Assembly: GCA_030704615.1 (NCBI GenBank)
Contig: CM060734.1
Span: 12,152,001 to 12,216,000 of the forward strand
DNA length: 64,000 nt
From: Takakia lepidozioides
Lineage: Eukaryota > Plantae > Bryophyta
Reading direction: 5' to 3'
Shown in pieces: positions 1,674-45,409 of the stretch. The notes under the pieces were generated by a model, which saw nothing but the letters and a program-made list of their open reading frames with translations, did not search any database and was not told the origin of the DNA. Numbering within the stretch: position 1 is the stretch's first letter; every line of letters starts with the position of its first letter. Both the position numbers and the translations under genes were made by a program.

Positions 1674-2739
1674 CTGGGGGGTGCACTCTTTATAAAATGT
1701 GCGTATCACGTGCGTTCGTCGGCTAATAAAAAAAACCCCTGTATATGGGTCCTGGTATAATTTATACCCCCTCTGTACATACTTTTTGAAAATTATAAAA
1801 CCCTCTTCTGTAAATATATAGAAATTTTTAATTTTTAAAAAGTACTTGAAAATTCATATCTCCCACACCGCAAGTCCCAAAATTATGAGACCAAGCCGGT
1901 GCACCCCTCCTCATTGAGGGCTTTCCAATGGTACCAAACACCAGGGCTGGGGCCCCGCGGTTTGGGAGATCTCAACGATGACACAAAACACAACAAACTG
2001 TCTTTCATCTATATTACTGTTAATCGTGACATTTGTTTCAAGAATCGTGGAGTAACCTAGTGGTATGCAGGTACTTGTGGTGTGTAGGTGGTCTTGAGTT
2101 CAAATCTGTGTAGCGAAATACATGTATTTTTGAAGTTTTTGAAAAACTCAAGATTACATGGTGATTTTGAACCCACGATGAGTGTCATGACAATGCTAAT
2201 CTTCACCACTATGCTACCTTCTTAATCACGATAACTCGTTGCTGTAGACTTATATTTAAGGTATTGTTTACCCCCCTATGTATGTATAATGTTGTACATG
2301 GGGAGGTCCCTTCTTCACCGTCTGCACAACTTTCTCTGCCAAGCCATCGGCCTCAGGGTGATCCCGAGAAATGGTACGGTGGTCTATCAAGGCTTTATCA
2401 CACAAAGCCTGAAACTCCCCCAAGAACTATCTCCCTTGGTCCATGAGATGGAGCACCGAATCGGCTAAGCACACGATCCAAGAATGCATATGCAGCCCCC
2501 TTACTAGCCTTGTCAGGCAACGGAACCAACTCAATCCACTTGGAGAAGTGCTCCACCATCACCAACACATATTTGTGGTGGCGCATCGTCAGTGGCAACG
2601 GTCCTGCGAAGTCAAGACTCCACCTGTAGCCCAATCCCATGATCGAAAAGATGATGCAATTGTGGCGTAGAGGCGTTGAATGAAGCACACAATACCCCCT
2701 CCTATGCACGCACGTGGCTGGTACAGGTGCACCCCCCAG
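1674..2739. mobile_element. Non-autonomous TIR DNA transposon (Mutator-like by TSD length) inserted in the LINE
   Basis: Perfect 13-bp TIRs CTGGGGGGTGCAC (1674-1686) and GTGCACCCCCCAG (2727-2739). A 10-bp TSD GCTTCCATCC lies at 1664-1673 and 2740-2749. Removing the element restores LINE sequence. Confidence 0.85.
2300..2688 (-). pseudogene. Ty3/gypsy integrase catalytic-core fragment (frameshifted) captured in the TIR element
   Basis: Reads ASFNASTPQLHHL/IMGLGYRWSLDFAGPLPLT..KYVLVMVEHFSKWIELVPLPDK..AYAFLDRVLSRFGAP/..DQGR*FLGEFQALCDKALIDHRTISRDHPEADGLAEKVVQTVKKG, which is the D,D(35)E core. Confidence 0.9.
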
Positions 2740-9128: not shown

Positions 9129-12100
9129 TGTCAAGTTATTTTACCACTAGTGTGAAACTAGCTAGGAAATAGCTAGCTTTTACATATTGACAATTGGGAT
9201 TGGCCCAAATGTCAATCCAGGTGTCATGGTTTTAGTCATGGTTATCTAGAATTATCTACTTCTAGTTAACTAGGACATTTTAGATATTTATATTTATATT
9301 TTGTGTGTTGGGACTTCATTTGGTCTCACATGCCAAGTGAGGTGTCGAACCTCACTTGAGACATGGAAATAGGTTTTCCCCTTGTGAGTGTTGAGGAGGC
9401 TCATCTTCTTGTAGTTGAGCCTCCATGAGCTTCTCTCACCTCCATAGCTCTAGGTATTGAGAGGGAGTGTGTTGAGGGCTTTGTAGGGTGGATTCCTTTA
9501 GCAAAGGTGCCCTTGGCTTGACTTAGTTTATGTGATAGAGTGGATTTCACTTGGAAGGACTAGGGCTTGTTCTTCATGTGATTGCTTCATGCTTTGAGAG
9601 CTTTCATTGTCTTCTACTTCTCTCATTTCTCATCTCTTATCACTACAAGAATATCACCTTATGCTTGTGAGTGCGGAGTGTAAGGATTAGTTTTGCACTT
9701 GTATTTTAAAGAGGTTGAGAGCTAGGAGAATTTAGCTCTTGTATCACAAGGCTTGCAAGGGGTTGCAAGGAAAGGTGCTCAAGTATTGCCTGCACCAAGG
9801 AGTTGGAGAGCTTGAGAAGAAAGCTCTTGAGTTACAAGATTTTGCAAGGATTGTAAGGAGGAAGTCTTGTGTGTGTGGAAGCATGGATTCTAGGGTTTGA
9901 GAATCCTTTGTATGCATTATGGAGTCGATGGTGTGCGCCATGGCTTGTGGAGAGTGACTAAAGGCTTGTTAGTGCTCATTTCACTATCAAGCTAGGGTTA
10001 AGCAAGTTCAAAGTGTGGATGTTGTGGAAGAGAAGCCAAGGAGCTATATATGCTTGGGCTTGAAGACAACAAGGGCAAGCACTTGGAGAGCACTAAGAAG
10101 CTCAAAGAGGTTTTGAAAGGGAGCATGTGAAGAAATCTTCCAATCATGGTGGTGTGGAGCCAAGCTTAGGGTGCCATTGGAAGGGCTTGGAGAACATGTG
10201 GTGGGAAATCATCATTCAATGTATGCATAGCTTCACCCTAACTATGTAATGTGACAAGAGGGGGAGGCAATACTTGGCTATTCATGCTCTTGGTAGTGCG
10301 AGCTTTGTGGTGGATAGTTGACCAAGCAAGTGGTGCATGTGTGGAGCATGCTCGCTTGAGTTTGTAAGTTCAAGTTTGAGAAGGGGAGCTCTTGAACTAG
10401 CAAGAGGTGAAGGCCTTTGAGATCCATTTGTGTGTGAAGTGGAGAGGTGTTGATTCATGTTATGATGAAGGAGAGCAATACATAGGCCAAGAGGTCATGA
10501 AACATGCATTCAAATGACCACGGGGAGCACATGGATGATGGATTGGTGCAAGACCCCAAATGAGGTATATGGCGTGAGAGTGGGATCCAAGGCGGATTGC
10601 TTGGGAGCATTATTGTAAGTTACAAGCATTGCTCCTACACATTGAGATAATTTGTGTTGATTTGGAGCAATTGTCAAGTGATGAGGAGACAAATGCATGA
10701 TTGCTCGGCAATGGAGATATGGTAGTTTGCAATCAAATCCCAAGGACTAGAAGGGGGATTGATTTGGTGGACAATGACTTGCAAGTTGAGTTGGACCACT
10801 CTTGGTTGCACATTGGGGTGGAAGAGAGCAAGAAGATGCCTCTTATGACCACCTAGAGACCATATTTTTGCTTGAGTAGAAGCATAGAAGTCAAGGACTT
10901 GCATTCTAGCTCTTCATTACAAACCCTAGTAGTGTATGCTCAGACTATACCTCTGTTAGTATACCAAACAGGAGCTTGTCCCTTTGACTATACCTCTGTT
11001 GAGGTATCACCATATGTGAACCCTAATGTGAGACTATACCTCTGTTAGTATACCAAACAGGAGCTTGTCCATTTTACTATACCTCTATTGAGGTATCACC
11101 ATATGTGAACCCTAATCAGCTCAGACTATACCTCTGTTAGTATACCAAACAGGAGCTTGTCCCTTTTACTATACCTCTGTTGAGGTATCACCATATGTGG
11201 ACCCTAATCAGCTCAGACTATACCTCTGTTAGTATACCAAACAGAACCCTCATTTTCAGACTATACCTCTGTAAATGTATCATCAACATAAGGGACCCTA
11301 GCAACCTCAGACTATACCTCTGTTAAGGTATCAACAGTGAAAGGACTTAGTGAAATTTAAGGGCCTTTGGAGGATTGTTTGGAAGATATTTGAGGGCCCT
11401 TGGAGGAGTATTTGGAGGATCTTTGGGGTCATTGGAGGAGTGTTTGGAGGATCTTTGGGGTCCTTAGAGGACCCTTTGAGGAGCTTTGGTGGACAATGTT
11501 GAAGAGCTCTTGAAGGATTGATTGAGGGATATTGAAGGATACTTGCCACGGCCATACAAGCGAGTGGATAGAGACAGGAGGGAGAGTGGTGGGATGAGAG
11601 CATTATGGGGTTAGGAATTGCTTTAGTTTCTCTTCTCCATAGTCTTTCACCCTCTCTGTAGGCCAAAACCTTTCCGTAGGTGGAGGCAAGAGTCAGTCCG
11701 GGTTTGGGCTGGGGTGTCTTTGCAGGAGCGACACTGTGGAGTGTTTTTGGTGTGGGGGAGTTGTTGTCTTGATTTTTTTGTGTTTGGATCCCCTCCACAC
11801 CTGCATGCTTGACTGTGCGCCATGTTAGCTTTGTGTGGGCGCTTGTTTTCATAGGAGGTTGGTCCGGATTTGATCACCGGCCAATCCTAGAGTATGTTGT
11901 CGGTGGTGAGGCTGGAGTGATGACCAGCAAGACCACCAGTGTTTCTTCTATGGTGAGGCTGGGTTGATGACCAGCAGACCATAAGAGTGCTTGCGGTGGA
12001 TGCAGGTGCAGGTACAGGTCTACGTTAGAAACCTATTATTCCTGCTTGAACCAGTAGCCGCAACAGGTTCTTTACCCGGTTACCTTGTAGAAAGTGGGGA

Positions 12101-12148
12101 TTAGAGACAGGTTGACAACCGGTTGGGTTGTGAGTTTTCATCACGGAG
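9129..12148 (+). mobile_element. Putative 5' LTR/leader of the DNMT-bearing retrotransposon (boundaries uncertain)
   Basis: Non-coding region directly upstream of gag. It starts near a TG and shares motifs (GGAGGCTCATCTT, TTGGCTTGACTT, GCATGTGTGGAGCATG) with 17350-19050. No PBS was identified. Confidence 0.45.
10938..11333 (+). repeat. Tandem array with nine ACTATACCTCT(G/A)T cores (~92-bp dimeric unit)
   Basis: Cores occur every ~42-50 bp (10944, 10987, 11034, 11076, 11126, 11168, 11217, 11260, 11311). Alternate units form ATACCTC-TGTT-GAGGTAT hairpins. Confidence 0.9.
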
Positions 12149-12513
12149 GTGCCACCAGCTGCTGAGGGGAGTGCCGGTACAAGCACCAGCGATACTAGTG
12201 GGTACACAAGACAAGGTGTGCGGTTTAGGCCACTTTCACCTTCAGTGTCTTCTGAGGAAGGTTCAGACTCGGAGTCAGGAGGATTCTCGCCGAGGGTGCA
12301 AGTCATTTCCGTGCCATTGTTGTGGGACACGATGGAGGAGATGTATGGAGCTACCAAGGGGCCACGTAGGTACTCTTGAGCTGTGGGCACCATCGAGCTT
12401 GATGACTTTATACAAGAGTTTGACAGTTGGTGTGATTTGCAGCAAATGCGCAATCCACAACTGTTTACGCCCTTTATGGCGTGGAAGGGGCTATTCCAGC
12501 ACCTTGAAGGCCC
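12149..12513 (+). pseudogene. Disrupted N-terminus of gag
   Basis: Reads MEEMYGATKGPRRYS*AVGTIELDDFIQEFDSWCDLQQMRNPQLF..WKGLFQHLEGP. There is an in-frame TGA at 12377-12379 and a frameshift at ~12513 into the 1267-aa ORF. Confidence 0.7.
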
Positions 12514-15500
12514 ATGGATGATTACCATGAATTTAGGCGGGGACATGCGGTGGAGATTGAGGAGTGGCGAGAGTATTGGTCACCTAACTATGTCTCAATC
12601 ACTAGAGGCAAAAGGGCAGCGGTGACACCAGCAGCTACACAAACATCTCCAACTACAAGCACTAGTAGTGGAACAAGTAGTGCCGGCACTTCTGCAGGTG
12701 GTACCAGTTCAAAAGGTGCTACTACTCCTCCTGCCACAATTACAACACATGTGCCTAGATTCAACCCGGTGGTGGAGTTCTTCCAGGAGTTGCGGAGGAA
12801 CTACCAAGGTGTACGGACAGAGAAGCTGCGAAGTTTGCAAGACTTCCAGCGCAAATCCAGTGAGAGCTTGCGAGAGGCCTACACTCGTATGAGGCGCTTG
12901 ATAAGTGTGACCCAAGGGATTACTGAAGCTCAGGCAGTCCAGTTCTGGTATGGAATTTTGAACAAGGAGCTCAAGAGAAGGGTGCGGGATGCAACCCTGT
13001 TACAAGCGGCCCAACCCACATTAGCGGATGTGTTTCTGCTGGCTGAGCGGATTGAGCTCAACATGGTGGAGGAGCGAGTTGTTACCATTGGATTTGGCAA
13101 GGACATGCCTGCACAAGGTGCAGCTGCCAGCCAACAGGTACAAGGGACTGCCCAACAGCGTGGTCAGGGGGGCAAGGTTGCCCAACCCAAGTTCCATGGA
13201 GCTTACAATGGACCTCAGGTGCAGAGGCCCGTGACATCTTTTGCAGGCCAACAGCAACCAGGGGTGATATGTTGGACATGTGGAGGACCCCATGTCAAGA
13301 GAGATTGCCCAGAGAGTGGCAGAAGGCCGGCACAAGCACAGCCTGCACAGTTGCAGTGTGGGCATTGTGGCAAGCATGGGCATGGAGCTGCCCAGTGTTA
13401 TGACTTGCATCCTGAGTTGCGCCCAGGCCAGTTCCAAGGGAACAATGGTGGCCGGGGGCGAGGTGGACCAGCCCAGAGAGGACGAGGTGGTCGGGCACGA
13501 GGTGCAGGCCAAGGGCAAGCTCAACATGGCCAAGGACGCGGAGGTCAGGGTGTTGACCAAGGCATGGCCAACCGGCTTCAGCAGTTAGAGCAGAGGCTCG
13601 CTGCCATGGCTACAGCTCAGGTGGTACCAGCTCCCAGGCAGGATGGTCCACCTCCTACTCCTGAGGGAGGAGATATGGGAGGCATGGGATTCATGTGCGG
13701 AGCAGCACTACCACTAGTGCAGGTGGAGTCTGCTGCAGCCGTGACTCGAGGAGCAGCACGAGTTCCTGAGCCACGAGGTGCAGAGGTGGAATTGGATCCA
13801 CACCGTGGGGAGGCAAGCCGTCAGGCGAGGCTTCCTCAGTCATTCACATTGGCGGAGATAGTGTCGACGCCATCCATGGCACCTAGTTCTCGCCCGACTG
13901 TTACCGAGGCGGAGGTTACTATGCCATTGGGGAGAGCTACACGTGCAGCACCGACACCTGCTACCAAGGCTAGTGCAGCCGGTGTGTTATCGGGGGCAGC
14001 CACCTCTGTGTGTCAAGCCCCACTGTTCTCGGCAACCATGATTGCGACGCCGGGGGTAAGACCAGCTGCAGTGTTCAGACTAGCAGCAACACTCTACGAG
14101 AGTGAGGAGGTCACTTTATCTTCTGCGGAGTTACTGGAAGGTGTAGTGGCAGAGGGATCTTCGGATTTGAGGGTCAAGACTGCCATGGCTGCGCCACGGC
14201 AAGCTGCAGCTGCCAGGTTGACGGAGCTGCCAGCTAGACCAGCCTTTGAGCACGCCATGGTGACACATGGAGTTGTCTTGTTAGACAACCAGGGAGGCAT
14301 TTTCACTTTGAGTGGACCGGCAGGCAAGAAGTACCGGCCACTGCGGGTCTTGTTGGACTCAGGAGCTCAGCCACTGATGTTGGGCAGAGCTGCTATTGCA
14401 GGTTTGGGCTTCATGGAGGCGGATATGGAGCCTTGTCCTTTCCAGATACAGACATCTCTGGGAGGATCAGAGCAGGCTCGGGGCATGACACGGCGTGAGT
14501 TGGCCATTGGACTACAACCAGATCATCCTGTAGATGGCTCAGTGATGCGAGCCAAGGCCATTGTGACAGACGCGGTCTCTTACAATGTCCTTGTTGGTGG
14601 GGCAGTGTTATATCCCATGGGCTTCACCCTGGACTTTTGGGAGGAGTCAGCATCCTACAGGCCTGGATGGCAGTCAGGGGATGGTCGTCGTGCACAGCTC
14701 CCTGTGACATTCATTGGGGGTATTGCGGCTGCCCAGCGGGGCAAGATGCCAACACTAGCCGCCTTTACAGCTGCAGTTAGTTGGCCTGGAGAGTTGTTGG
14801 AAGGCAATGCCCATGCAGAGGATGTGCCACCTCCAGCAGAGCAGGATGACATGCATGGTACGGCGGAGTTGTCTGCCATGGTTGCTCACACTCCATTATG
14901 GGGTACGAGCAAGGATTTGCAGCAGGCTGCTGATGGACGGGTAAAACAAGCTTGGGTAGAGGCCTTCATACCGTCAGGAGAAGAGGAGAGTGCGGTGATT
15001 GCACCAGGACCACCTCAGTTGTCGCCATTGGACACCACACCTCTTGTGTGGCAGTGCCCGGATGAAGGCATATGCCTTCTGGACTTGTTTGGCGGGATCA
15101 GCACTGGATTGGCTGCAGTACTGCAGGCAGGTGTACGAGTTCGATGTTACCTGTATGTGGAGAGGGATGAGACTACACGACGCGTCTCACTGTGCCATGT
15201 TGCTCAGTTGGTACAGCAGTACCCTGACTTGTTGCCAGTGTCTGCAATTCGTGGATACCAACAAGCCTTGCCAGCAGACATTTCGTTGCTGGGGGCGCAG
15301 GATTTGGAGGGGGTTGGCTCCATTGATCTGGTAGTGGCAGGTTGGCCCTGCCAAGGGCATTCATCAGCCGGGCATGGCAATGGATTGCGAGACTCGAGGA
15401 CGGGTCTGTTTTGGGAGATGGTGCGGATTTTGCGCCACCTGCAGCTTCATCAAGCTGTATCTCCAGTATACATCTTGGAGAATGTGCCACTGATGGGTGA

Positions 15501-16317
15501 TTCTCGGGCCAGGGTGATGGCCAGTGTGCATCAAGTCCTGTCGTGGCTTGGGTCAGCAATGTTGCTGGATGCAGCTGCAGTGGGGTCAGGGGCTCATCGT
15601 CCACGGCTATGGTGGACTAACTTGATGTCACCCGCACTGCTCAAGCGTGTATTTGATGGGGTGCAGCGGCCAGCACACCTCACAGTGGATAGCATTTTGG
15701 ACACAGGGAGGCAGTCTCAACGTGTGAGACACGATGACCGTTTGCCTTTGGCAGTGGTCAACAGGGTGGGTCAACCACGAGCAGCATTACCTACACTGCT
15801 CAGCTTCCCAGGATCCCATGCTTTTCGGGATGGTGGACCTGGCCTCTTGTGGGATAGCCAGTTGCAACAATTAGTGGAGCCCAATGCTGACGAGCGCGAG
15901 CGGGCGATGGGTTTTACCACAGGTACCACGGCGGTGCCATCTCTTTCTGAGGCATCACGTCAGGTGTTGGGGCAAGCAATGGATCTAAATTGCTTGACCT
16001 GGATTATCAGCTTGGCTATGGCTGAGCAGCGCAGAGTACGGAGTACACTTCCCTTCATGGTCTCCCTGCCTACCGAGACGGTACAGGCAGCGAGTGGGGG
16101 CGAGCACGTGAGGACCACGAGGTGCAGGCCGCATCCATGGCACACGTGGGAGGTGCTCGGTGTTCAGAAGGAGTTGGCAGCCAAGGCGGCGGTGATGGAT
16201 CAGGTTGGGGATTTTTCTCGGATTGAGGAGGTCCTCAAAGATGGGATGATGGGGCAGGATGGGACATTGTCACTGACAGAGGAGGCAGTGATCACTGCTC
16301 AAGAGGTTGCAGCATAG
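12514..16317 (+). CDS. Ty3/gypsy-type polyprotein: Gag - 2 zinc knuckles - aspartic protease - C5 DNA cytosine methyltransferase
   Basis: Gag core FQRKSSESLREAYTRM. Knuckles CWTCGGPHVKRDC and CGHCGKHGHGAAQC. RGG tract. Protease LLDSGAQ (Asp codon 14356) plus VLVGGAVL. The C5-MTase motifs follow in the same frame. Confidence 0.9.
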   Translation: MDDYHEFRRGHAVEIEEWREYWSPNYVSITRGKRAAVTPAATQTSPTTSTSSGTSSAGTSAGGTSSKGATTPPATITTHVPRFNPVVEFFQELRRNYQGVRTEKLRSLQDFQRKSSESLREAYTRMRRLISVTQGITEAQAVQFWYGILNKELKRRVRDATLLQAAQPTLADVFLLAERIELNMVEERVVTIGFGKDMPAQGAAASQQVQGTAQQRGQGGKVAQPKFHGAYNGPQVQRPVTSFAGQQQPGVICWTCGGPHVKRDCPESGRRPAQAQPAQLQCGHCGKHGHGAAQCYDLHPELRPGQFQGNNGGRGRGGPAQRGRGGRARGAGQGQAQHGQGRGGQGVDQGMANRLQQLEQRLAAMATAQVVPAPRQDGPPPTPEGGDMGGMGFMCGAALPLVQVESAAAVTRGAARVPEPRGAEVELDPHRGEASRQARLPQSFTLAEIVSTPSMAPSSRPTVTEAEVTMPLGRATRAAPTPATKASAAGVLSGAATSVCQAPLFSATMIATPGVRPAAVFRLAATLYESEEVTLSSAELLEGVVAEGSSDLRVKTAMAAPRQAAAARLTELPARPAFEHAMVTHGVVLLDNQGGIFTLSGPAGKKYRPLRVLLDSGAQPLMLGRAAIAGLGFMEADMEPCPFQIQTSLGGSEQARGMTRRELAIGLQPDHPVDGSVMRAKAIVTDAVSYNVLVGGAVLYPMGFTLDFWEESASYRPGWQSGDGRRAQLPVTFIGGIAAAQRGKMPTLAAFTAAVSWPGELLEGNAHAEDVPPPAEQDDMHGTAELSAMVAHTPLWGTSKDLQQAADGRVKQAWVEAFIPSGEEESAVIAPGPPQLSPLDTTPLVWQCPDEGICLLDLFGGISTGLAAVLQAGVRVRCYLYVERDETTRRVSLCHVAQLVQQYPDLLPVSAIRGYQQALPADISLLGAQDLEGVGSIDLVVAGWPCQGHSSAGHGNGLRDSRTGLFWEMVRILRHLQLHQAVSPVYILENVPLMGDSRARVMASVHQVLSWLGSAMLLDAAAVGSGAHRPRLWWTNLMSPALLKRVFDGVQRPAHLTVDSILDTGRQSQRVRHDDRLPLAVVNRVGQPRAALPTLLSFPGSHAFRDGGPGLLWDSQLQQLVEPNADERERAMGFTTGTTAVPSLSEASRQVLGQAMDLNCLTWIISLAMAEQRRVRSTLPFMVSLPTETVQAASGGEHVRTTRCRPHPWHTWEVLGVQKELAAKAAVMDQVGDFSRIEEVLKDGMMGQDGTLSLTEEAVITAQEVAA
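15070..16020 (+). other. DNMT3-like C5 cytosine methyltransferase domain within the retrotransposon polyprotein
   Basis: Motif I LDLFGGISTG (~15079). Motif II YVERD. Motif IV DLVVAGWPCQG (PCQ 15346-15354). Motif VI ILENV (15478-15486). Motif VIII AHRPRLWWTN (15598). Motif IX ERERAMGF. Motif X QVLGQAM (15961). Canonical, non-permuted order. Confidence 0.93.
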
Positions 16318-17349
16318 CAACCACGGGACGCGTCTTCTACCTCTAAGCCTGCTGGACTCAAGGTTGCAGTCACGGAGGACAACTGGGAGCCTGATGTTGG
16401 ACCTATAGTCACCGGAGGAGAGAGACGACATATACGGCGGTTCTTGAGGGCTTACAATAACTTCTTTGCCTTCAGTTTGAAGGACATAGGAGCACTGAAG
16501 GGTCAAGAGATTCACATTGAATTGGCTACTGACACGTCAATCTTTCGAAGACCCTATAGATACAGTGACATGGAGAGGTCCTTGATTCAGATGAGAACTC
16601 AGGACCTTTGGGAGGCTGGTTTGGTGGAGCTATCTGGGGGAGAGTATGCTTCAGCCACAGTGATGCCAGCCAAGAAGGATGTCTTTGGCAATTGGACGGA
16701 GAGACGTATGTGCGGTGATTACCGACCTGTAAATCGTCAGACCAAGTCCGATAGGTATGTCATGCCAACACCAGAGGAGATCTTTGATGCCATTGGGCAT
16801 GCCAAGATCTTTAGCACGTTGGATTTACGATCCGGATATCACCAGTTGCTGATCAAGGAGGCGGATAAGCAAAAGACGGCATTATGGGGGATCAATGAGC
16901 ACGGGAAGGATTGCCTATACCAGTGGCGGTTCTTACCATTTGGGCTTAAGAACGCTCCGGCAGAGTTTCAGAGAGTCATGGACAGGATTCTAGCAGGGGT
17001 GGAGTTTGCTCGGTGCTACATAGATGACATCATCATCTTTAGTGCTACGGTGGAAGAGCATGAGAGACACCTTCAGGGGGTATTTGAGCGCTTGAGGGCG
17101 CACGGATTGAAGTTACATCCGGGAAAGTGCAAGTTTTTCCACAACCAGATTGAGTATCTGGGTTACATGATATATCCTGGAGGATTGGGGGTACAGCAGA
17201 CTAAGGTAGAGTCCATTGCACAGGTTCCACGCCCCACGGATGTGAGCCGAGTTCGAGCTTTCATGGGGTTAGCAAACTATTATAGACGGTTTGTTAAGGG
17301 ATTTAGTGCCATTGCAAAGGCTCTAACCAAGCTGACCAAGGTGGACCAT
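16318..17349 (+). CDS. Ty3/gypsy reverse transcriptase, same frame as the DNMT ORF, truncated before RNase H/integrase
   Basis: Motifs [53 protein letters not shown] and FMGLANYYRRFVKGFS. No stop lies between TAG 16315-16317 and the RT. Homology is lost after KLTKVD at ~17349. Confidence 0.92.
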
Positions 17350-19050
17350 TGTGGTATAGCTTTCTAGGATTGTGTGCTTAGATTGTGTGGTGGACAACGA
17401 TGTATGTTGTGGCACGATGCTTAGATGCACGACACAGGGGTCAAGGCAGATTTAGGCCCTGGAGTGGTTATCTTCACGGCAAGCACGGGAGGCTCATCTT
17501 TCTCGAGTTGAGCCTCACCGCGCCTAGCTATGGCGCCATAGTGTGGATTCCCCATGGCGTGGGGTGCACTTGGCTTGACTTGTATTTGAGTGATGAGGTT
17601 ATATATGCATGAGTTTATGCTTCAGCTTTGTGAGCTCGCATGAGCTTGTGCTTGTATTTTTTTTTTTTTATCACTCAAGAAAGATGAGCTCGTATCTGTG
17701 AGTGCCAGATACGAGTTAGTTGTAGCGCTTGTGGTTTTTGCTTGAGAATGAGAGAAACCAGGTTGTTATGCAAGGAGCACCGTGGAGCTCTTGGTTGTTA
17801 GAAGTGGAGGCGATGTGGGTTACGAGGTGGTAGACCTTGGCATTCGATCTTCAGCTTCAGAGATGAAAGCACCATGCTGCAAGATTGCAAGACCAAGCGA
17901 AAGGGCTGATTTGGCTTGGGGCAAATCAGTGCACTTTGTGGAGTATGTTGAGATTGGGTTTCAATCTTGAGCTTCAGCATTGAGAGGGCTCTTGTCATGG
18001 CAAGAGCAGGGCTAGAACAAGAGCTAAGAGGTGCGGCAAGGCCATGGAATGTGCACCTAGGGTTTCAGAGCTTGGAAGAAGAGCTCTTGCACCACAAGAG
18101 GAGTGTCTTGTGGCTGGAAATGTAAGCCTTAGGGTTTCAGGAGCTTGGCAAGGGCTGTGGAGTGCTTAGTCTTGTCTTAGAGAGCATCAAGGAGCTAAGG
18201 AGCCAAGATAGGGGGCTGATACCTCTTGTGTGAAGAGGTTGCATGTGTGGAGCATGTATTCAGCTCATTGAAGCTTCCATCTTCAAGCTTGGAGGGCAAG
18301 CAAGGAAGAGGGAAGGGCTGACTTCCCTTATGTGAGAGCAATGCATGTGTGGAGCATGCTTTTAGCCTATTGAAGGCTTGTACTTTCAGGTTTGGGAGTG
18401 CAAGAAAGGAAGGAAGGGGCTGGTTTCCCTGTAGGGCATGTGTGGAGCATGCTTCCAGTCCGCTGAAGCGTGTATTTTCAGGTTGGTGGGTGCAAGAAAG
18501 AAAGCAAAGGGGCTGATTCTCTGGTGGTGAGAGTGGGGCATGTGTGGAGCATGCCTTCAGTCCATTGGGCTTTTGTTTTCAAGCTTTATAGAACTAGAAG
18601 AGAAGGTAAGGGGCTGATCTGCTCTTATGTAACAGTCCGACACTTGTAGAGCGTGTTCTGAGTTGGGGTTTCAACCTCAAGCCTAGATAGAGCATGGCTC
18701 TTGAAGTGGCAGATGTAGGGGGCTGGAATAGCCTCTAAGACAGATACTATGGCCAAGGGAAATGTTTGAATGAGTGCTCACAAGGGCTGGAAACCAGCAA
18801 GGCTTGGTTGTTTGCCATTGAGTTTAGTGGCGTGTTTGGGGAGAAGGCTTGGTTTGTGGCAACCATCTTCCTCATGGCTTAGGGCTACTATTGGTGGTGT
18901 GTGGGAGCCGAAAGAGCAAGAATACCTTGCTGATTTCTTCACAGCCACCATAGCTCGGTGCAAAGAAGCCTAGAGTCCAAGAGACACAAACCCTAGCTTG
19001 GCGTGGCTAAACCCCTTGGAGAAATGCCTAAACTGCCATGAGTGGCTTGT
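17350..19050 (+). mobile_element. LTR-like non-coding segment related to 9129-10900; truncates the DNMT element
   Basis: Begins TGTGGTATAG at the RT break. It has patchy motif identity to 9395-9680 and internal ~100-bp repeats with GCATGTGTGGAGCATG at 18241, 18343, 18436 and 18538. Confidence 0.55.
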
Positions 19051-19051
19051 G

Positions 19052-19160
19052 GGGCTGTGACGGGCTGTGATAGGCTGTGATGGGCTGTGGTGGGCTGTGA
19101 CAGGCTGTGCCCTGTGACCTGTGTAGGGCTGTGACAGGCTGTGCCATGTGGCCTGTGGGT
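19052..19160 (+). repeat. Degenerate 10-bp tandem repeat (RGGCTGTGAY)
   Basis: Reads gggctgtgac gggctgtgat aggctgtgat gggctgtggt gggctgtgac aggctgtgcc... Confidence 0.85.
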
Positions 19161-21273
19161 GAATCGGAAGCGGAGGGAAGTGAAGTTTGAGGCAGGCACG
19201 GAGGTCTGGTTGAACATCAAAAATTTCCGACTACCTCCGGAAGTGAGTCCAAAGTTCGTACCTCCATATGCGGGACCCTTTCGCATCCGGAAGGTTATGA
19301 ATGAGGATGTGTATGAATTGGAGTTGCCGGCAAACAGCAAGGTGCATCCAGTATTCCACGTCTCCCTTTTGAAGCCTTACTTCAAAGAGAAAGCGCGTCC
19401 AAATCGGCATCAAGTGTTGCGTCCGCCACCTATGCTGTTAGATCATGAAAATGAACCTGAGTATGAGGTGGAGGCAGTACTTAAGTCGAGGAGGTTCAAG
19501 AACCGAGAAACAGAGTATCTCGTCAAATGGAAGGGCTATCATCATGTGGAGGCATCTTGGGTGCGTGCCTCAGAAATTGGAAACACATCCGAGGCGGTTG
19601 CAGTTTTCAAAGGGTGACCTCAAAAATGGAAGAAGCGTTGATGGGGACATCAACCTTGGAGCGTGGGGGAGGAAATGCATGCTTAGCCCGGCTTAGCTAG
19701 CTTAGGAATCCGATTGCAAAAACTTGTATTGTACAAAAATTTGTTATAAAGGAAATGGATTCCAAATGTTGTGCGTCCTATTTTGTTTGGAATGGTGATG
19801 CATGGTGTGGTTGGCTAGTGTGTAGAATGCATGCTAGCTTACAAAAGTGGGAGAGGTAAATTGGGTTAATCGTGTGTTTGCGCAGTGCCAAAATCGGGTG
19901 ACTTCCATCCAAATGGGCAAGGAAACTTGCGCGTTCTTTAGGAGTTCACGTGCTAGTGCGCACCTGGCGCGTGCGCATACTATAACTGCGCTACCGAGGG
20001 GGTTGCTTTGTACTGCGGGCTAACGCGGAAGCTACGTGCTTCCGTTCACGTACTATAATCGTGTAGCCTTGGGACGAAGTCGTAGTGCGGCTTCGGCGTG
20101 TTCCCGTACCTTAGGCCAACATTCCGAGGCGGACCCAATTGTAGTGATTGGGGCGTGCGGTTGGTTCAAGGTTATCTTCCTAGTCAAAGAGGGTTCGAGG
20201 TGAACCCTTGCTCAAGGTGATGCCGAAAGCGGCATCATGAGCGGTCGCAAGCAATGTTGTTGCAGTAAGGCGATTCGATCCTCGGGGAGGATCGTTCCTT
20301 GGCCTTGAAGTAGGCCAAGAAGAGTGCACTAGGAGGAGCTTGAGAGGTTCCACCCTTGGCCGGGACTTGGAGGAAATCGGCCGAACTAGCTAGTGGAGAG
20401 TAGAGTCAAGTGTGGGGTTTGGTTCTTTGCCATGGGACGCCATGGTACGGAAACAAACTCCTTGATGTGGGACGCCACAACTTGGATGTTCGTTTCCACA
20501 AAATGTACAAGCCGATGAGGACATCGACTCCCTGTTGGTAGGGGTGTGTGTCGCGGCCCTTTGCCTTGAGGGTAGGGGGTCGGGACACAAGAGGAGCTGC
20601 CCCTGTGGTGGGGGCAGTGGCAGCGATAGGTATGGGGGGCTGAAGCACCCTTGAGTGCCCAAAGCACTCAAGGAGGCGGAGGCACTCACTAGGTGGAGCC
20701 CCGCACACCGGGTTGCGGTGGGGGTGGCTCCACAAGGGGTGGTGGTAGCTTAGCGGGACTTAGTGGGGGTGGCATAGGACTCACCCTGGGGCAGAGACCT
20801 CGTGGTGGGAGTCGTGGGGAGTCTTGGGACTCATCACGGTCCATAGGGGCCGTGGTGAGTGGGCCAAGACTCACCGCGACTCATCACCGGGAGTCGAGGG
20901 TGTTCGTGGTGGTTCGCCATAAAATGGCATGGTTGTTTGTGAAACCCCCGCGGACAGCTACAGAAGTATATATAGGGAGTAGTAACCCCGAGAATGGTGC
21001 AAGCCCGCTGGTGACCAAAAGCTAGTGAGTAAGCAAGCGAGCCGGAAAGTGACCAAAGAGTGGGGAGCTGTTCCGGACTGCCAACTACCAAAGGGAATTC
21101 CGCTAGTTCTAAATCATTGGAGGGTTCTTTGGGAGATCAAGGGGGGACTGTTATGTCCTGGTGAGCAGCCGAAGCTCCAAGTTGGCCCGGCGGCCAGGTT
21201 GGGAGTTAGGCGCGCGCATCAAGCGAGTAACTATGACTTGAGGGGGGAGCTTACCGAAGTGAGGTGCGCGACA
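19161..21273 (+). mobile_element. 5'-truncated older copy of the chromovirus: integrase C-terminus/chromodomain, 3'UTR and 3' LTR (20549-21273)
   Basis: ORF 19141-19617 is nearly identical to the C-terminus of pol 33026-36229 (GPF motif, chromodomain). The LTR runs TGTCGCGG...GCGACA. A premature TGA at 19615 corresponds to CGA in the intact copy. Confidence 0.93.
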
Positions 21274-21279
21274 CTCTAT

Positions 21280-24200
21280 AATCTAACAGGCATTCAGCTT
21301 TTTGCCTCGGTTGTCCCACCATTGACTGGGTCAGAAAAGTATTCATTCCACAACTTCTCCTCATCTCAGTTACACGGTTTTGGATACTTTCCTGCTGTCA
21401 CTTTGGCAGTATCATATCAAAGTCAAGTTCCAAACTATCAAAGGTTCACTCAACCAGCTAACTTGTAGAATTCAACATGAAAATATTTTAGGGCCGATTC
21501 TGATAAGAGGGGAAAACATGTGAAATGTGTCGAAGAAGGTAACTTCATTAGCAGTGCCTGATTTTATCAATTGTGTCGTTGTTGCTGCGGCTTCCAGTTG
21601 ACCATCTACCCATGCAGGTTTCTTGTAGCTATCCTTCCATAGGGAATGATAGGTAATCTGGAGCTTGAAATCCGGCCCTCTTGGATGAATCTGGACCCAC
21701 ACTCTATGCTGTTCCTTCAGCTATCCATGCCTCTGCACAAATCATGCATACATCTTGCCTTGTTGCTAGCAGCTAATAATGACAGCCTAGAACTCTTCCC
21801 GCAAACACCCCAACCATACTTATCACACGAGTTCCTATGCTGACTTGCATTCACCTTTTTGCCTTGATTGTTCAACCATTGACTTGGGTCGGAAACATGT
21901 TCATTTTGGAGCTTCTCCTCGTCTCTGTTATCTGTTTTTCGATACTTTCCTGTTGCCACATTGGCAGTATCATGTCAAAATCACTCCAAAACTACCATAG
22001 ATCCACCAACAAGCTAACTTACAGAATTCAACTTGAAAATTTAGGGACGACTTTGATAACAGGGAAAACAGGATGAAATGTGTTGAAGAAGGTGCCTTCG
22101 TTAGCGGTGCCTGGTTCTATCAATTGTGTTGCTGCCGCTGCTGTTTCCAGTTGACCATCTACCCATGGAGGTTTCTTGTAGCTATTTATCCACGGGGAAT
22201 CAGAAGTAATCTTGTGTTTGAAATCGGGCCCTCTTGGATGAATCTGGACCCACACTCTATCCCTGGTCCTTCGGCTATCCTTGCATGTATACAAACCAGG
22301 CATACATCCTTGCCTTGGTGCTAGCAGCTGACACTGACGGTGTGGAGTTCTTCCAGAAAACACCCCAACCCTACTTATCACACTAGTTCCAAATCTGAAA
22401 TGCCTCTGCTTCTCTTTGTAATCCAATAGGCATTCACCTTTTCTAGAGCTGCTAGGCTTGCACACGCATTGCAAACACAAACAAACGTAATGTGGTTGGG
22501 CTTCACCCCTTCCTGCATCATTTTGCTCGTATGTCTCCAAAGCCTCCATCCCGCAACCCTGCTATGCATGTCCTGCGATCATTGCATTCCACAACACCAC
22601 ATCACATTCAGCCATAATGTCAAACACCCCCCTTTGCATCTTCAATACTCCCACATTTGGCATACATATCCAGCAAGGCAGTGTTCAGAATGACATTTGG
22701 TACAATTCCAGCTTTGACAATGTCACCATGGACCTCTTTGCCATTTTCCGGGGCTACCAGGCTGGCACATGCATTGCAAATGCCATCTGATTGGGCTTTA
22801 CCCCTTCCTACATCATTTGCTCATAGGTCTCCAAAGCCTCCATCCCACGATCCTGCTGTGCATATCCTGCGATCATCGCGCTTCACGACACCACATCACG
22901 TTCAGCCATTTTGTCGAACACTGCCTTTGCATCTTCAATGCACCCAAATTTGGCATACATGTCCACCAGGGCAGTGTTCAGAATGACATCTGGTACAATT
23001 CTAGCTTTGACGATGTCAGCATGGACCTCTTTGCCATTTTCCAGGGCTGCCAGGCTCGCACACGCATTGCAAACGCAAACAAATGTAATGCGGTCGGGCT
23101 TCCCCCCTTCGCACATCATTTGCTCATAGGTCTCCAAAGCATTCATACCACACCCATTCTTGGTAAATCCTGCCAACATTATATTCCACGTGATCAAAGA
23201 TCGTTAAGGGATTCTGTTGAACACTTGGTGAGCATAGATGTACACCAGGGGAATGTTCAGAATGACATGTGGTACAATTCCAGCTTTGATAATGTCAACC
23301 ATGAACCTCTTTGACCATTCCCAGGGCTGCTAGGCTTGCATATGCATATTATAAACACAAATGAACATGACCTGGTCTGGCTTCATCCCTTCCCACATCA
23401 TTTGCTCTTAGGTTTCCAAAGCCTTAATAATCCCATACCCATGCTGCACATACCTTCAATCATGGCACTCCAAAACACCACATCTCGTTCAGCCATATTG
23501 TCAAACTCTCCCTCCGCATCAGGCTTGCTGCACCCACATTTGGCATACATGTCCACCAGGGCAATGTTCAGAATGACATCTGGTACAAATCCAGCTTTGA
23601 TGATGTCACCATGGACCTCTTTCCCTCCAGAGCTCCCATGGTTGCACACGCATTGCAAACACAAACACACGTGATGTGGTTGGGCTTCACCCCTTCGCGC
23701 AGCAGTTGCTCATAGGTCTCCAAAGCATTCCTACCACACCCATGCTTGGTAACTCCTGCCAGCATTATATTATATGGAGACAAGGGTGTTGAGTAGAAAA
23801 ACATTTGGCGTGCATCCACTTTGGATAATGTGAGTGTGCACATGCTTTAATCCAGCGTCCAGACCTTCCATCTTGATGCACTTAAGCAAGGGACAGACAT
23901 GCGTACCTGAATCTGCTGAAATGCCTCATTGGTTTGAAGTATGTAGAGCCTATGTCAGTCTGTTTGCCGCAAAACATCTTCACATGCCCAGAAGTGCCAG
24001 AAGAGGCATTGTGGACTCCCTCTCTTGATCCTCTTTCAGAAGCTGTGGTCATGGTTGAGGTGCCTGGTTTTATGAACTGTGCCACTGCAGCTACAGCCTT
24101 TAGTTGACCATCTACCCATGCAGGTTTCTTGTAGCTATTGATCCACAGGGAATCACATCTGGTATAATTCCAGCTTTGGCGATGCAACCACGCACCTCTT

Positions 24201-26500
24201 TGCCCTTTTCCAGGGCTGCCAGGCTTGCACACGCACTGCAAACGCACACAAACCTGATGTGGTCGGGCTTCACCCTTCCCCAATCATTTGCTCATAGGTC
24301 TCCAAAGCCTTCATCACGTGCCTTTGTTGTGCATACCCTGCAAGCATTGCATTCCATGACATCACATCTCGTTCAGCCAGAGTGTGGAAAACTCCCTTCC
24401 CATCCTGAGTGCACCCACATTTGGCAAACATGTCCACCAGGGCAGTGTTCAGGATGACATCTGGTACAATGTCACCATGGACCTCTTTCCCCTTTCCCAG
24501 AGCTCCCAGGCTTGCACACACATTGCAAACACAAATAAATGTGATGTGGTTGGGCTTCACCCCTTCGCACATCATTTGCTCATAGTTCTCAAAAGCCTCC
24601 ATCCCACACCCTTGCTGTGCATATCCTGCAATCATCACACTCTAAGACACCCACGTCTTGTTCAACCATACTGTCAAACACTCCCTTCATACATGTCCAC
24701 GAGGGTTTGTGGCAGCAGGAAAGTATCCAAAAACAGATAACATAGCTGAGGAGAAGCTCGTTGGTGGATCTATGGTGGTTTTGGAGTGATTTTGACATGT
24801 TGCTGTAGGTAGGGTTAGGGCGTCAGTGTTAGCTGCTTCAGCTGCTAGCTGCAGCAAGGCTGAGGATGTATTCACGATTTGTACACAAGCATGGATAGAT
24901 TGTGGGTCCACATTCATCCAAGAGGCCCGGATTTCAAGCTCCAGATTACCTATCATTCTATGTGGAGGATAGCTACAAGAAACAGATGGTCAACTGGAAG
25001 CCCCCGCAGCAGCGGCACAATGGATAAAATCAGGCACTACTAACGAAGGCACCTTCTTCAACACATTTCACCCTGTTTTTCCTTCTTATCAGAATTGGCC
25101 CTAAATTTCCATGTTGAATTCTGCAAGTTAGCTGGTTGAGTGAATCTTGTTTGGAGTGACTTTGATATGATACTACCAATGTGACAGCATGAAAGTATCC
25201 AAAAATAGGTAACAGATATGAGGAGAAGTTGTGGGATGAATAATCTTCTGACCCCAGTAAATGGTGGGACAACCGAGGCAAAAAGGTGAATGCTTGTCAG
25301 ATTACAGAGAGTAGCAGATGCAATTGACCATAGGAACTAGTGTGATTAGTTGAGTTGGGTGCAATTGTACTCTCTGTTTCCTCTCTGCTTCTGTTTGCTA
25401 TTCAAAGGTAGGATTCCTGCCCTAAGTTTAAATTTCAGTCTAGTGCCGAGAGTGGGTAGACCCTTGAGGTCATCCATGATGTCCTCCCCCATGTCACAAA
25501 CTGGAAACAAGTCCAGGGAAGTTTTCTACCTAACTTCATTTTCATCAGATAATTTTCTGGAAACAGACATGGCTTTGGACACTACAACCTCTAAGTCAGT
25601 AGGGTTGGGGTGTTTGCTGGAACAATTCTAGGCTGTCATTGTCAGCTGCTAGCAGCAAGGCAAGGATGTGGGCATGATTTGTGCAGAGGCCTGGATAGCT
25701 GAAGGAGCAGGGATAGAGTGTGAAGATGCTTTGTGAGGCACGCAGACTGACAGAGGCTCTACAGACTTTAAACCAACGAGGCATTTCAGCAGATTCAAAT
25801 ACATATGTCTGTCTCTTGCTTAAGTGCATCAAGATCAAAGGTCTGGAAGCTGGAAACATTAGCACATGCAAAGAGGTTTGGTTGCATCACCAAAGCTGGA
25901 ATTGTACTAGATGTGATTCTGAACAATACTCTCGTGGGCATGACTGAAGGAGCAGGGATAGAGTGTGGGTGCAGATTCATCCAAGAGGCCCGGATTTCAA
26001 GCTCCAGATTACCTATGATTCCCTGTGGAAGGATAGCTACAAGAAACCTGCATGGGTAGATGGTCAACTGGAAGCTGCAGCAGCAGCACAATTGATAAAA
26101 TCAGGCACTGCTAATGAAGGCACCTTCTTCAACACATGAGACCCTATTTTTCCCTCTTATCAGAATCGGCCCTAAATTTCCATGTTGAATTTCTGCAAGT
26201 TAGCTGGTTGAGTGAATCTAGTTTGGAGTGACTTTGACATGATATTGCCAATGTGACAACAGGAAAGTATCCAAAAATAGGTAACAGAGATGAGGAGAAG
26301 TTGTGGAATGAATACTTTTCTGACCCTAGTCAATGGTGGGACAATCGAGGCAAAAAGGTGTATGCCTGTCAATTACCAGATGTCATTCTGAACACTGCCC
26401 TGGTGGACATGTATGCCAAATGTGGGTGAATCGAGGATACAAAGGGAGTGTTCAATACTATGGCTGAATGAGATGTGGTATCGTGGAGTGTGATGCTTGC
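21280..26500. pseudogene. Patchwork of PLS-class PPR gene fragments interleaved with R2 modules, both orientations
   Basis: Repeated ALVDMYAKCG..EDAK.VFD.MAERDVVSW.AM.AGYAQQG.G.EALETYEQM..EGVKP..ITFVCVCNACASLAALE.GKEVH at 22430-23990(-), 24150-24700(-), 25720-25940(+) and 26375-26500(+), with many frameshifts and stops. No E/DYW domain was seen. Confidence 0.9.
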
Positions 26501-31129: not shown

Positions 31130-31400
31130 AGGCCCGCTCAAGCACCAGATGAACTTTAACTCTCCATGTCTTGGGGCTGTAACATCCAATAAGCCCACAG
31201 CCCATGCACAGTGTGTCCTAGGAATTCTTTTCTGCTAAGGATAGACCATGAGCAGACTGCCCTAGTCTGTCCGCATCTTCCTCCACCATGTTGAAATCTC
31301 TTCCCATTATCCAGTGTTGGATATGTGTGTGTTGCAATAGCTTGTCCCTAATTTGATCCCAGAGACCAACCCTCTCATCTTCCCCATTCGGGGCATAAAT
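31130..31400 (-). pseudogene. LINE APE endonuclease, part downstream of the gypsy insertion
   Basis: Reads IYAPNGEDERVGLWDQI...WIMGRDFNMVE and joins ..GVLNIY from 38367. Confidence 0.9.
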
Positions 31401-33025
31401 TGTCGCACACCTCAGTTCGGTAAACTCCCCTTCAAGTCATAGTTACTCGCTTTGATGCGCGCGCCTGACTCCCAACCTGGCCGCCGGGCCAACTTGGAGT
31501 TTCGGCTGCTCACCGGGACATAACGGTCCCCTTCCGCTTCCCTCTAAACCCTCCACCTATTTGGGACTAGGAGAATTCCCTTTGGTAGATGGCAGTCCGG
31601 AAGAGCTCCCCACTCTTTGGTCGCTTTCCGGCTCGCTCGCTTACTCACTAGTTTTTGGTCACCAACGGGCTTGCACCGTTCTCGGGGTTACTACTCCCTA
31701 TATATACTTCTGTAGCTGTCCGCGGGGGTTTCATAACCAGCCATGCCATTTTATGGTGAACCACCACGAAAACCCTCGACTCCCGGTGGTGAGTCGCGGT
31801 GAGTCTTGGCCCACTCACCGCGGCCCCAATGGACCGTGATGAGTCCCAAGACTCCCCACGACTCCCACCTCGAGGTCTCCACCCCATGGTGAGTCCTATG
31901 CCACCCCCACTAAGTCCCACTAAGCTACCACCACCCCTTGTGGAGCCACCTCCACCGCAACCCGGTGTGCGGGGCTCCACCTAGTGAGCGCCTCCGCCTC
32001 CTTGAGTGCCTTGGGCACTCAAGGGTGCTTCAGCCCCCCATACCTATCGCTGCCGCTGCCCCCACCACAGGGGCAGCCCCTCATGTGTCCCGACCCCCTG
32101 CCCTCAAGGCAAAGGGCCGCGACACACACCCCTACCAACAGGGAGTCGATGTCCTCATCGACTTGTCCATTTTGTAGAAACGAACATCCAAGTTGTGGCG
32201 TCCCACATCAAGGAGTTTGTTTCCGTACCATGGCGTCCCATGGCAAAGAACCAAACCCCACACTTGACTCCACTCTCCACTAGCTAGTTCGGCCGATTTC
32301 CTCCAAGTCCCGGCCAAGGGTGGAGCCTCTCCAGCTCCTCCCAGTGCACTCTTCTTGGCCTACTTCAAGGCCAAGGAACGATCCTCCCCGAGGATCGAAT
32401 CGCCTTACTGCAACAACATTGCTTGCGATCGCTCATGATGCCGCTTTTGGCATCACCTTGAGCAAGGGTTCACCTGGAACCCTCTTTGACTAGGAAGATA
32501 ACCTTGAACCAACCGTGCGCCCCAATCACTACAATTGGGTCCGCCTTGGAATGCTGGCCTGAGGTACGGGAACACGCCGAAGCCGCACTACGACTTCGTC
32601 CCGAGGCTACACGATTATAGTACGTGAACGGAAGCACGTAGCTTCCGCGTTAGCCCGCACTACAAGGCAACCCCCTCGGTAGCGCAGTTATAGTACGCGC
32701 ACGCGCCAGGTGCGCACTAGCACTTGAACTCCCAAATAAGGCGCAAGTTTCCTTGCCCCTTGGATGGGAGTCACCCGATTTCGGCACTGCGCAAACACAC
32801 GATTAACCCAATTTACCTCTCCCACTTTTGTAAGCTAGCATGCATTCTACACACCAGCCAACCACACCATGCATCTCCAAACACAATAGGACGCACAATA
32901 TTTGGAACCCATTTCCTTTATCACAAATTTTTGTACAATACAAGTTTTTGCAATCGGATTCCTGAGCTAGATAAACCGGGCTAAGCATGCATTTCCTCCC
33001 CCACGCTCCAAGGTTGATGTCCCCA

Positions 33026-36000: not shown

Positions 36001-36240
36001 CCGACACTCGTAAAACCTCGCCACCATTCCCACATGGCAGCGTGACTACTCTCTTGCGGCCATCTATGACCGCTCCGGATTTGCTCAAAAAGGTCATTCC
36101 CAAAATGAGATCCACTCCATCGATCTCGCAGATAGTGAAGTTCTCACGTCCCTCCCAACTCCCCAGTTGAAGAGGAACATCAAACGCCAACCTTGTCGCC
36201 AACTGAGGTTCTCCTTTGGCAGAGCGCACCTCAATAGAGG
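33026..36240 (-). CDS. pol: pol: protease C-terminal half, RT, RNase H, integrase, chromodomain
   Basis: Motifs [63 protein letters not shown] and [24 protein letters not shown]. Confidence 0.95.
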
Positions 36241-37587: not shown

Positions 37588-37628
37588 GATGAGGCCAATC
37601 CCAAGGACGATCGCGTACTGAACTCTAA

Positions 37629-37640
37629 GCTCTGATACCA
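37629..37640 (-). promoter_or_regulatory. Primer-binding site, tRNA-iMet
   Basis: TGGTATCAGAGC lies 2 nt inside the 5' LTR. Confidence 0.95.
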
Positions 37641-45393: not shown

Positions 45394-45409
45394 AAATCTC
45401 ATTTTTTGT

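Follow-up and report, generated by a model that had tools for sequence, protein, structure and literature searches.

We analysed a stretch of 64,000 nucleotides of the moss Takakia lepidozioides (GenBank assembly GCA_030704615.1, contig CM060734.1, positions 12,152,001 to 12,216,000 of the forward strand; called the window here and numbered from its first letter), which carries a Gypsy-type retrotransposon with its own DNMT3-like cytosine methyltransferase. An earlier note on this DNA had limited the element to 12,149-17,349, while the real extent is 9,222-17,434, in the order terminal repeat A, coding part, terminal repeat B. The target-site duplication CAGG (4 bp) stands on both sides, at 9,218-9,221 and 17,435-17,438. 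Repeat A (9,222-9,642, + strand, 421 bp) reads TGTCATG...CA, and its first seven bases are the same as in the A repeats of relatives. Repeat B (17,350-17,434, +, 85 bp) reads TGTGG...CACGACA; aligned to B of the related locus L070 it scored 50, and the maximum in 1,000 shuffles was 37. The element sits inside another high-copy repeat (9,187-9,217 and 17,439-19,160). The flank left of 9,218 matches a loose end that run X5 shows attached to 17,435, which represents an empty site in another copy of this host repeat.

Directly behind A there is a putative primer-binding site (9,643-9,651, +), which is not of the usual TGG tRNA type. Nine bases complementary to it are present within A (9,406-9,414, +; chance 0.7% over 5,000 random window positions), where the RNA likely has its 5' end and may prime itself. 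The long leader contains about four tandem units of about 92 bp (10,938-11,325, +). Read depth at 10,500-11,600 was about one tenth of that in the coding part, so the long leader may be specific to a subfamily. Depth on the coding part was high, and one run gave 120,812 contig pieces on 10,500-21,500, an interval that includes other repeats.

The start of gag lies in a different frame (12,188-12,520, +) and was found by tblastn with the Marchantia proteins P0123 (83% over 63 aa) and P0468. Two lesions break it, a stop (12,377-12,379) and, near 12,510-12,520, a frameshift; at position 12,377 most other copies differ from the window copy. The main part of the first open reading frame (ORF1) is the stop-to-stop frame 12,508-16,317 (+), which has 1,269 codons, not the 1267 residues counted earlier, and holds Gag, zinc knuckles, protease, the DNMT3-like domain and a tail of 94 residues. 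The two Cys/His knuckles (13,270-13,398, +) are sequence motifs, CX2CX3HX4C at 13,270-13,308 and CX2CX4HX4C at 13,357-13,398, neither scored by Pfam. The aspartic protease region (14,263-14,697, +) has the LLDSGA motif, with DSG at 14,350-14,367. The C5 cytosine methyltransferase domain (15,061-16,032, +) has intact catalytic motifs, and behind it an in-frame TAG is followed by CAA CCA (16,315-16,323, +), a likely readthrough site. Reverse transcriptase (RT; 16,318-17,348, +) has YIDD at 17,017 and matches RVT_1 with E 1.2e-31 and 110 bits; its frame (16,318-17,367) is in the same phase as ORF1. The earlier note had placed everything from Gag to RT in one frame. This holds for Gag, knuckles, protease and methyltransferase, while RT stands behind the TAG at 16,315-16,317. 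The profile search it proposed likewise came out divided: PF00145 scored E 3.9e-13 (50 bits against a curated cut-off of 22), but in the window copy Retrotrans_gag (E 0.014) and the protease families (E 0.04-0.09) stayed below cut-off. The proteases of the relatives P0135, P0151 and P0156 are above it.

The RT is cut at 17,348, where other copies continue. A deletion inside the element fuses RT to the terminal repeat, and RNase H and integrase are therefore missing from this copy. Neither RNase H nor PHD finger of this family was found in the 64-kb window, and an unlinked integrase fragment of the family lies at 2,307-2,643 (-), 72-88% identical to a Sphagnum fallax protein. The window copy is thus dead, as had been noted, through the gag stop, the frameshift and the cut RT. 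It is a broken, internally deleted member of an abundant land-plant Gypsy-type retrotransposon lineage.

C5 methyltransferases of plants differ in the order of their motifs: DRM enzymes are permuted, while the window domain is unpermuted and stands inside a retroelement ORF. Motifs I (FxG), II, IV (PCQ), VI (ENV), VIII (RPR), IX and X follow each other at 15,079-15,984, which bears out the earlier description of a complete, unpermuted enzyme; near 15,957 the window domain is one codon short compared with other copies. With a profile of 24 relatives, DNMT3A/B/C ranked top of 51 matched PDB sequences (DNMT3A E 3e-19; DRM 1e-10 to 9e-9; HaeIII, HhaI and DNMT2 2e-6 or weaker). An AlphaFold model of the domain (pLDDT 71, pTM 0.78) had DNMT3A as best fold match, with E 7.6e-14 and TM 0.57. 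The noted resemblance to DNMT3 was thus recovered in both sequence and fold searches of PDB, which rank DNMT3A/B first. Judged by these matches the window domain is of DNMT3 type; DRM, DNMT2 and bacterial enzymes are more distant from it. Host DNMT3 of non-flowering plants has the same unpermuted catalytic domain type, but carries a C-terminal DUF3444 (PMC6453930).

Relatives were taken as the best 80 loci of 129 metagenome matches. Among full-length domains the catalytic Cys is kept in 46 of 46, the Glu of ENV in 45 of 46 and its Asn in 46 of 46. Between diverged copies dN/dS of the domain is 0.06-0.17, similar to the protease and above RT: 0.11 for L054-L058, 0.13 for L054-L056, 0.16-0.17 for L009 against L002 and L007, and 0.06 for the window against L002 and L007, where dS is near saturation. 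It means that the domain is kept by purifying selection across a multicopy family, as the earlier note had supposed. Such a pattern argues strongly against a single capture of a host DNMT3 exon, and so do the domain order common to dozens of loci and to named liverwort and moss proteins, the lack of an intron and the lack of a match to the host-type C-terminal DUF3444. The contig could also be algal or a contaminant. However, decayed PPR remnants near the element match land-plant proteins and very many contigs of one organism carry the element; we give practically no credit to either the exon capture or the foreign contig. A land-plant host, to which both the PPR remnants and the element proteins point, is well supported by these matches.

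Metagenome loci of sufficient length (e.g. L007, L048, L054, L070) showed the order Gag, protease, DNMT, RT, RNase H, integrase, PHD. Copies of the order that the earlier note wanted to see were thus found among metagenome loci, without an ordinary pair of long terminal repeats (LTRs). Relatives score rve and Integrase_H2C2, that is a DDE integrase, and no tyrosine recombinase family was scored in the 34 and 12 proteins scanned. The element therefore uses Gypsy enzymes; it is not a canonical LTR element, because its ends are A-coding-B or A-coding-B-A-B and not two identical LTRs.

Two domain searches matched 221 and 64 proteins. Named matches were from Calypogeia fissa (73%), Marchantia polymorpha (up to 72%) and Sphagnum (67%), and also from M. 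paleacea and Riccia; the dominant metagenome family clusters with named Sphagnum proteins. In 18 of the first 20 protein clusters looked up, no organism other than Marchantia was found. A Marchantia cluster contained 18 proteins at 90% identity, and five of the ORF1 products examined had 1,278-1,281 residues with motifs IV, VI and VIII intact. M. polymorpha has a young family with open ORF1s. Trees took in only element domains and one viral-contig methylase. A quick RT tree put the window in a 13-row clade (SH-aLRT 96) with other stop-bearing elements and one Marchantia protein. Distances of RT and DNMT were correlated with rho 0.96 among 19 elements that have the domain before RT and 0.71 among all 64, the pairs being not independent.

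The methylase-element lineage is also present in zygnematophyte algae. Related domains occur in Closterium and Spirogloea (P0322, P0339, P0420, P0487 and P0183, Spirogloea as a fragment only), and the Closterium proteins fall outside the stop-bearing clade; P0487 of Closterium has Gag, protease, DNMT and RT as a single protein. In a second large group of elements (P0305-P0445) a related domain follows RNase H and precedes integrase; 57 proteins have this order, RT-RNase H-DNMT-integrase-PHD. It forms its own clade, and 470 clusters at 50% identity reach E 1e-30 or better. Viral contigs gave one distant methylase (L081, 39% over 94 aa), and in the ESM Atlas the PF00145 clusters were of viruses and streptophytes, with no further lead.

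A retroelement requires some 20 Gag for each Pol (PMC2194720). UAG-CAR-YYA is the type I readthrough consensus of tobacco mosaic virus (PMC3542737), and the junction TAG CAA CCA of the window is an exact example. The in-frame TAG is a conserved feature of the family and not a mark of decay; 55 of 56 relatives retain a stop there. At the 56 loci that have the domain and the start of RT, TAG or TAA stands at the homologous place in 53 and ahead of an insertion in 2, and one has a sense codon. The hexamers that follow are CAACCC in 45 (one family, where ATG comes next), CAACCA in 2, CAGTTA in 2, and CAATCA, CAACTC and CAACCT in one each, so that CARYY is at the site in 52 of 56. CAACCA, CAGTTA and CAATCA belong to lineages with domains 50-67% identical to that of the window, and the background of CARYYA after TAA or TAG in the same DNA is 57 in 18,143. 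In the other 24 loci the junction motif was found within the next 420 nt in 4, and the remainder end early or are rearranged. At L063:1789-1797 the sequence reads TAG TAG CCA, which would be one C-to-T change away from the CARYYA context. No difference at 16,315-16,323 was seen among the 40 differences listed, of 1,067, between other copies and the window.

In L054 an ORF1 of 1,369 codons is followed by a single stop and an ORF2 of 1,047 codons. Proteins with protease and DNMT mostly end 40-170 residues behind the domain (31 of 48), with the stops of Marchantia and Calypogeia taken from protein ends; 9 of 48 continue into RT, four as plant gene models and five as single-ORF proteins of sister lineages. 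No shared RNA structure was found behind the stop, with z from +1.5 (window) to -3.8 in mononucleotide shuffles. The pol part behind the stop is probably made by readthrough, to judge from this conservation, with the methylase at the level of Gag and RT and integrase at a few per cent. The methylase is predicted on the abundant side, since it stands ahead of the stop and about 20 Gag per Pol are needed.

Three points count against readthrough. The strict CARYYA is present in only 5 of the 56 relatives plus the window. Forty-five of the 56 junctions are of one Sphagnum-type family, whose CAACCC followed by ATG differs from the consensus in one base and could allow reinitiation. The in-frame gag/pol stop of Tca2 is not necessarily read through (PMC2194720). 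Instead, splicing, reinitiation or an internal promoter may give rise to RT, RNase H and integrase; the stop would then be real and its CAR-YY context incidental. The Tca2 precedent and the ATG 6 nt past the stop in the Sphagnum-type family agree with this, and gene models of Marchantia and Sphagnum fuse DNMT and RT (P0126, P0127, P0132, P0164). But these fused proteins are automatic models, P0164 without most of RT and RNase H, and may be artefacts. Furthermore, the frame is kept, three different CARYYA hexamers are found in diverged lineages, and a nearby in-frame ATG is absent in the window, L054 and L009. In the window the first in-frame ATG comes 252 nt after the stop, past residues that relatives share, and L054 has none in 300 nt, so reinitiation is disfavoured in both. 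We regard these other routes as improbable and keep readthrough as the preferred explanation. We found no literature on this conserved stop, with most subscription papers lying outside the search.

LTR elements of Ty3/Gypsy type usually have TG...CA ends and target duplications of 4-6 bp, and such ends with 4-bp duplications were found in the window and in relatives. Among loci with both outer ends, the duplication is exact in 7 of 9 and has one mismatch in 2 of 9. In relatives, repeat A measures about 340 bp and repeat B 112 bp. No B was found ahead of A in any of the 25 loci with an upstream A. The 3' sides end in B alone in 15 loci (one at a contig end), B-A-B in 4 and B-A cut short in 3, and 2 are rearranged; A-coding-B-A-B is complete in L048 and L070, and its 3' half is present in L010 and L041. 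Ordinary paired LTRs had been considered for L007, L048 and L070 and were rejected, as these repeats are permuted A and B.

A polypurine tract lies upstream of B. The B-A junction is palindromic, with GACA-GC-TGTC in L070 (a 16 bp palindrome) and L058 and GACA-GT-TGTC in L054. The A-B join is short and alike in three of four loci, L048 having extra bases; the last bases of the window A are joined to B in one run X6 contig, so the A-B join is also present among near-identical copies. Some 30 nt past a TATA-like box, A holds a stretch to which the bases following the 5' A are complementary. The complementary pairs differ in sequence between the window (9 nt), L054 (15 nt) and also L070. Self-priming is known from Tf1/Tcn1 (PMC6317226). 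From this layout it is fairly likely that reverse transcription primes itself and yields a cDNA with B+A as its true LTR, and that the integrase cuts the palindrome inside the LTR and not the ends. A-coding-B would then arise when both palindromes of a linear cDNA are cut or a 1-LTR circle is opened, and A-coding-B-A-B when end-joined cDNA is opened at the palindrome. We hold an end-joined, probably circular origin of A-coding-B-A-B for about an even chance.

Two results do not favour this route. Of 17 A ends, only 5 have an exact complement of at least 11 nt, while 4 have one of 9-10 nt and 8 have none. The mirror form A-B-A-coding-B is seen in 0 of 25 loci, against B-A(-B) in 5 of 21 3' ends (Fisher p 0.015). 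A symmetric circle model in its simple form disagrees with this, because a 2-LTR circle has two palindromes and the mirror form is unseen; for the same reason the route should be asymmetric or different, although some loci are duplicates of one insertion. The missing mirror form, and an A-B join that is short and mostly alike, would suit a template switch, as proposed for split-repeat tyrosine-recombinase elements: it would make A-coding-B-A-B without a circle, and B-B recombination would then give A-coding-B. However, the polypurine tract before B and the primer site behind A put the cDNA ends at B and A, the A-B join of L048 differs by extra bases, and the B-A palindrome seems to have the CA-NN-TG geometry of processed integrase ends. 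The template switch is possible but less convincing to us than cutting by the integrase inside the LTR. Our search found no literature on such a repeat layout with an integrase, most subscription papers being outside it.

Retroelement-borne C5 methylases were described in 2018 from algae and dinoflagellates. KnitGypsy-Dnmt3 of Klebsormidium nitens has the repeats A-coding-B-A-B in DIRS-like manner and is under purifying selection (PMC5890265). The land-plant family shares with it Gypsy domains, an intronless unpermuted DNMT3-like domain, purifying selection and this repeat layout, which supports a kinship in layout with this charophyte element. In the peer-review file of that paper, DNMT of KnitGypsy-Dnmt3 shares its ORF with RT and RNase H, while the land-plant family has a conserved stop between; therefore the latter is a variant and not a plain member. 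PHD finger, target duplication and readthrough are unmentioned in its main text. The Klebsormidium protein P0376 (KFL_013780020, partial) has Gag, a knuckle, a DSG protease and then a domain 38% identical to that of the window; this domain falls outside the stop-bearing clade, and the fragment lacks RT. The permuted ends of the land-plant family suggest an integrase cut within the LTR, possibly made on a circle. In foamy virus the integrase cleaves the palindromic junction of 2-LTR circles (PMC1180852). A DDE integrase opening a palindrome would be common to both, but the foamy-virus palindrome is the LTR-LTR join, whereas that of the land-plant family has its place within the predicted LTR, and copies in the genome are permuted.

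SymbioDIRS-Dnmt3 and SymbioLINE-Dnmt of Symbiodinium also carry C5 methylases, and SymbioDIRS-Dnmt3 is of DNMT3 type, has A-coding-B-A-B repeats and methylates CG in yeast (PMC5890265). A DDE integrase (rve, H2C2) and 4-bp duplications set the land-plant family apart from these elements, which use tyrosine recombinase or LINE machinery. EpiLTRs of Cymbomonas and Euglena (bioRxiv 10.64898/2026.05.21.726589) are LTR elements with a cytosine methylase and a chromatin reader, as here; they have a DNMT4-related enzyme, DAM and a chromodomain, in contrast to DNMT3-like and PHD. Tobacco mosaic virus (PMC3542737), SIRE1, MuLV and Tca2 (PMC2194720) share the in-frame UAG or UAA and CAR-YY(A), but here the stop is behind protease and methylase, so both are predicted at Gag level. 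A methylase domain is unmentioned in the main text on the Phygy/Selgy lineages (PMC6317226), and Troyka, as far as its available text describes it (PMC12440569), is unrelated. The 2018 survey table has rows for Physcomitrella and Selaginella and shows no Marchantia or Sphagnum match (PMC5890265). The available text of the 2026 preprint (bioRxiv 10.64898/2026.05.21.726589) and of PMC12344493 speaks of 'streptophytes', citing the 2018 work. Among the papers searched, none names elements of this kind from land plants; most subscription papers, the figures and supplementary-figure PDF of the 2018 paper and the preprint supplements were outside the search. We regard the land-plant family as a methylase-bearing Gypsy element of Klebsormidium type, in a variant whose conserved stop is likely read through and whose ends are permuted.

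A possible route for the enzyme can be drawn from these features. The methylase would be made together with Gag ahead of the stop, freed from the polyprotein by the element protease and carried in the particle, where it would mark fresh cDNA. This cDNA would enter the genome already methylated, probably at CG, and the PHD finger on the integrase would read the target chromatin. For intact members, release by the protease and catalytic activity are likely. The element's own cDNA as the substrate, integrated premarked and probably at CG, is to us an open bet with equal weight on both sides; self-methylation is a proposal of the 2018 paper (PMC5890265). The reading as a whole, with ORF1 for Gag, protease and DNMT, pol by stop readthrough, and an abundant methylase likely marking its own cDNA, we favour by a small degree.

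Several facts weigh against it. The target-recognition region was modelled poorly (pLDDT <50 at 226-260), so the sequence specificity of the domain is not readable from the model. Close Sphagnum-type pairs have dN/dS of 0.35-0.88, which is expected of decaying copies and gives no support by itself, and several metagenome loci are probably one insertion assembled twice. The observed/expected ratio of CG is 0.45-0.59 in the element (0.27-0.34 for C3-G1), against 0.88-0.89 (0.74-0.79) in a chromovirus of the window and 0.78 in a 6%-diverged chromovirus copy, but the depletion is not specific to the element: a presumably Penelope-like ORF of the window has 0.30-0.39 and the window mean is 0.49. 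In yeast the Klebsormidium enzyme produced no methylation, a result that its authors called inconclusive (PMC5890265).

The methylase may act mainly elsewhere, on the insertion site, host DNA or element RNA, or as a DNA-binding or shielding module. Methylation of RNA and a benefit to the host were among the alternatives named in 2018 (PMC5890265), output at Gag level would seem to exceed what the marking of one 9-kb cDNA needs, and another window element matches the CG depletion of the methylase element. None of the present results points to one particular substrate. A purely structural role is opposed by the catalytic residues kept across lineages, and in yeast, CG methylation of DNA was obtained with related DNMT3 domains from DIRS elements (PMC5890265). 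A main action elsewhere therefore seems to us rather unlikely beside the marking of the element's own cDNA. At the widest, we tentatively suggest, with more doubt than confidence, a lineage in mosses, liverworts and possibly vascular plants with self-priming, a DNMT3-like enzyme made at Gag level by readthrough, methylated end-joined or circular cDNA and a PHD-bearing DDE integrase cutting a palindrome inside the LTR.

The window also contains other repeats and gene remnants. A complete-looking chromovirus occupies 31,395-38,366 (-), with a Gag-protease frame at 36,094-37,653 and a frame for RT, RNase H, integrase and chromodomain at 33,026-36,247; its insertion is very recent, because the LTRs are identical over about 725 bp. 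The 3' end of a second copy (SH3, chromodomain, LTR), 94% identical, lies at 19,162-21,279 (+), separate from the methylase element. Fragmented frames at 44,360-47,608 (+), the last of them an RT-like ORF that has YIDD and matched no Pfam family, look Penelope-like to us and lie within a direct duplication of about 6 kb (41,916/47,889; 43,319/49,293). Gag of another Gypsy element is found at 59,320-60,210 (+; Retrotrans_gag E 3.5e-10). The decayed PPR remnants lie at 22,400-24,700 and 62,400-64,000 (-); their named best matches are of land plants, mostly Diphasiastrum, and 8 of the top 10 are from this lycophyte. Median best identities were 52% for Diphasiastrum (25 proteins), 53% for Ginkgo (15), 51% for Calypogeia (2), 41-45% for ferns (3) and 45% for Sphagnum (1), values too similar to tell lycophyte, gymnosperm and liverwort apart. 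Taken by themselves, the sequence matches would give a lycophyte host about an even chance and a bryophyte host a smaller one.

Why transposons carry their own silencing enzyme has been a question since 2018 (PMC5890265). In the sole green-lineage example so far, activity was undetected and the alga is hard to manipulate. The lineage is now placed in land plants, including the model plant Marchantia. Its conserved stop predicts the amount of methylase, and its permuted ends bear on end-joined or circular cDNA as a normal precursor for a DDE integrase. Surveys requiring paired LTRs would miss such elements, and counts of DNA methylase genes in seed-free plants may include element-borne domains. 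If the full route is true, every step of it would be accessible in Marchantia polymorpha.

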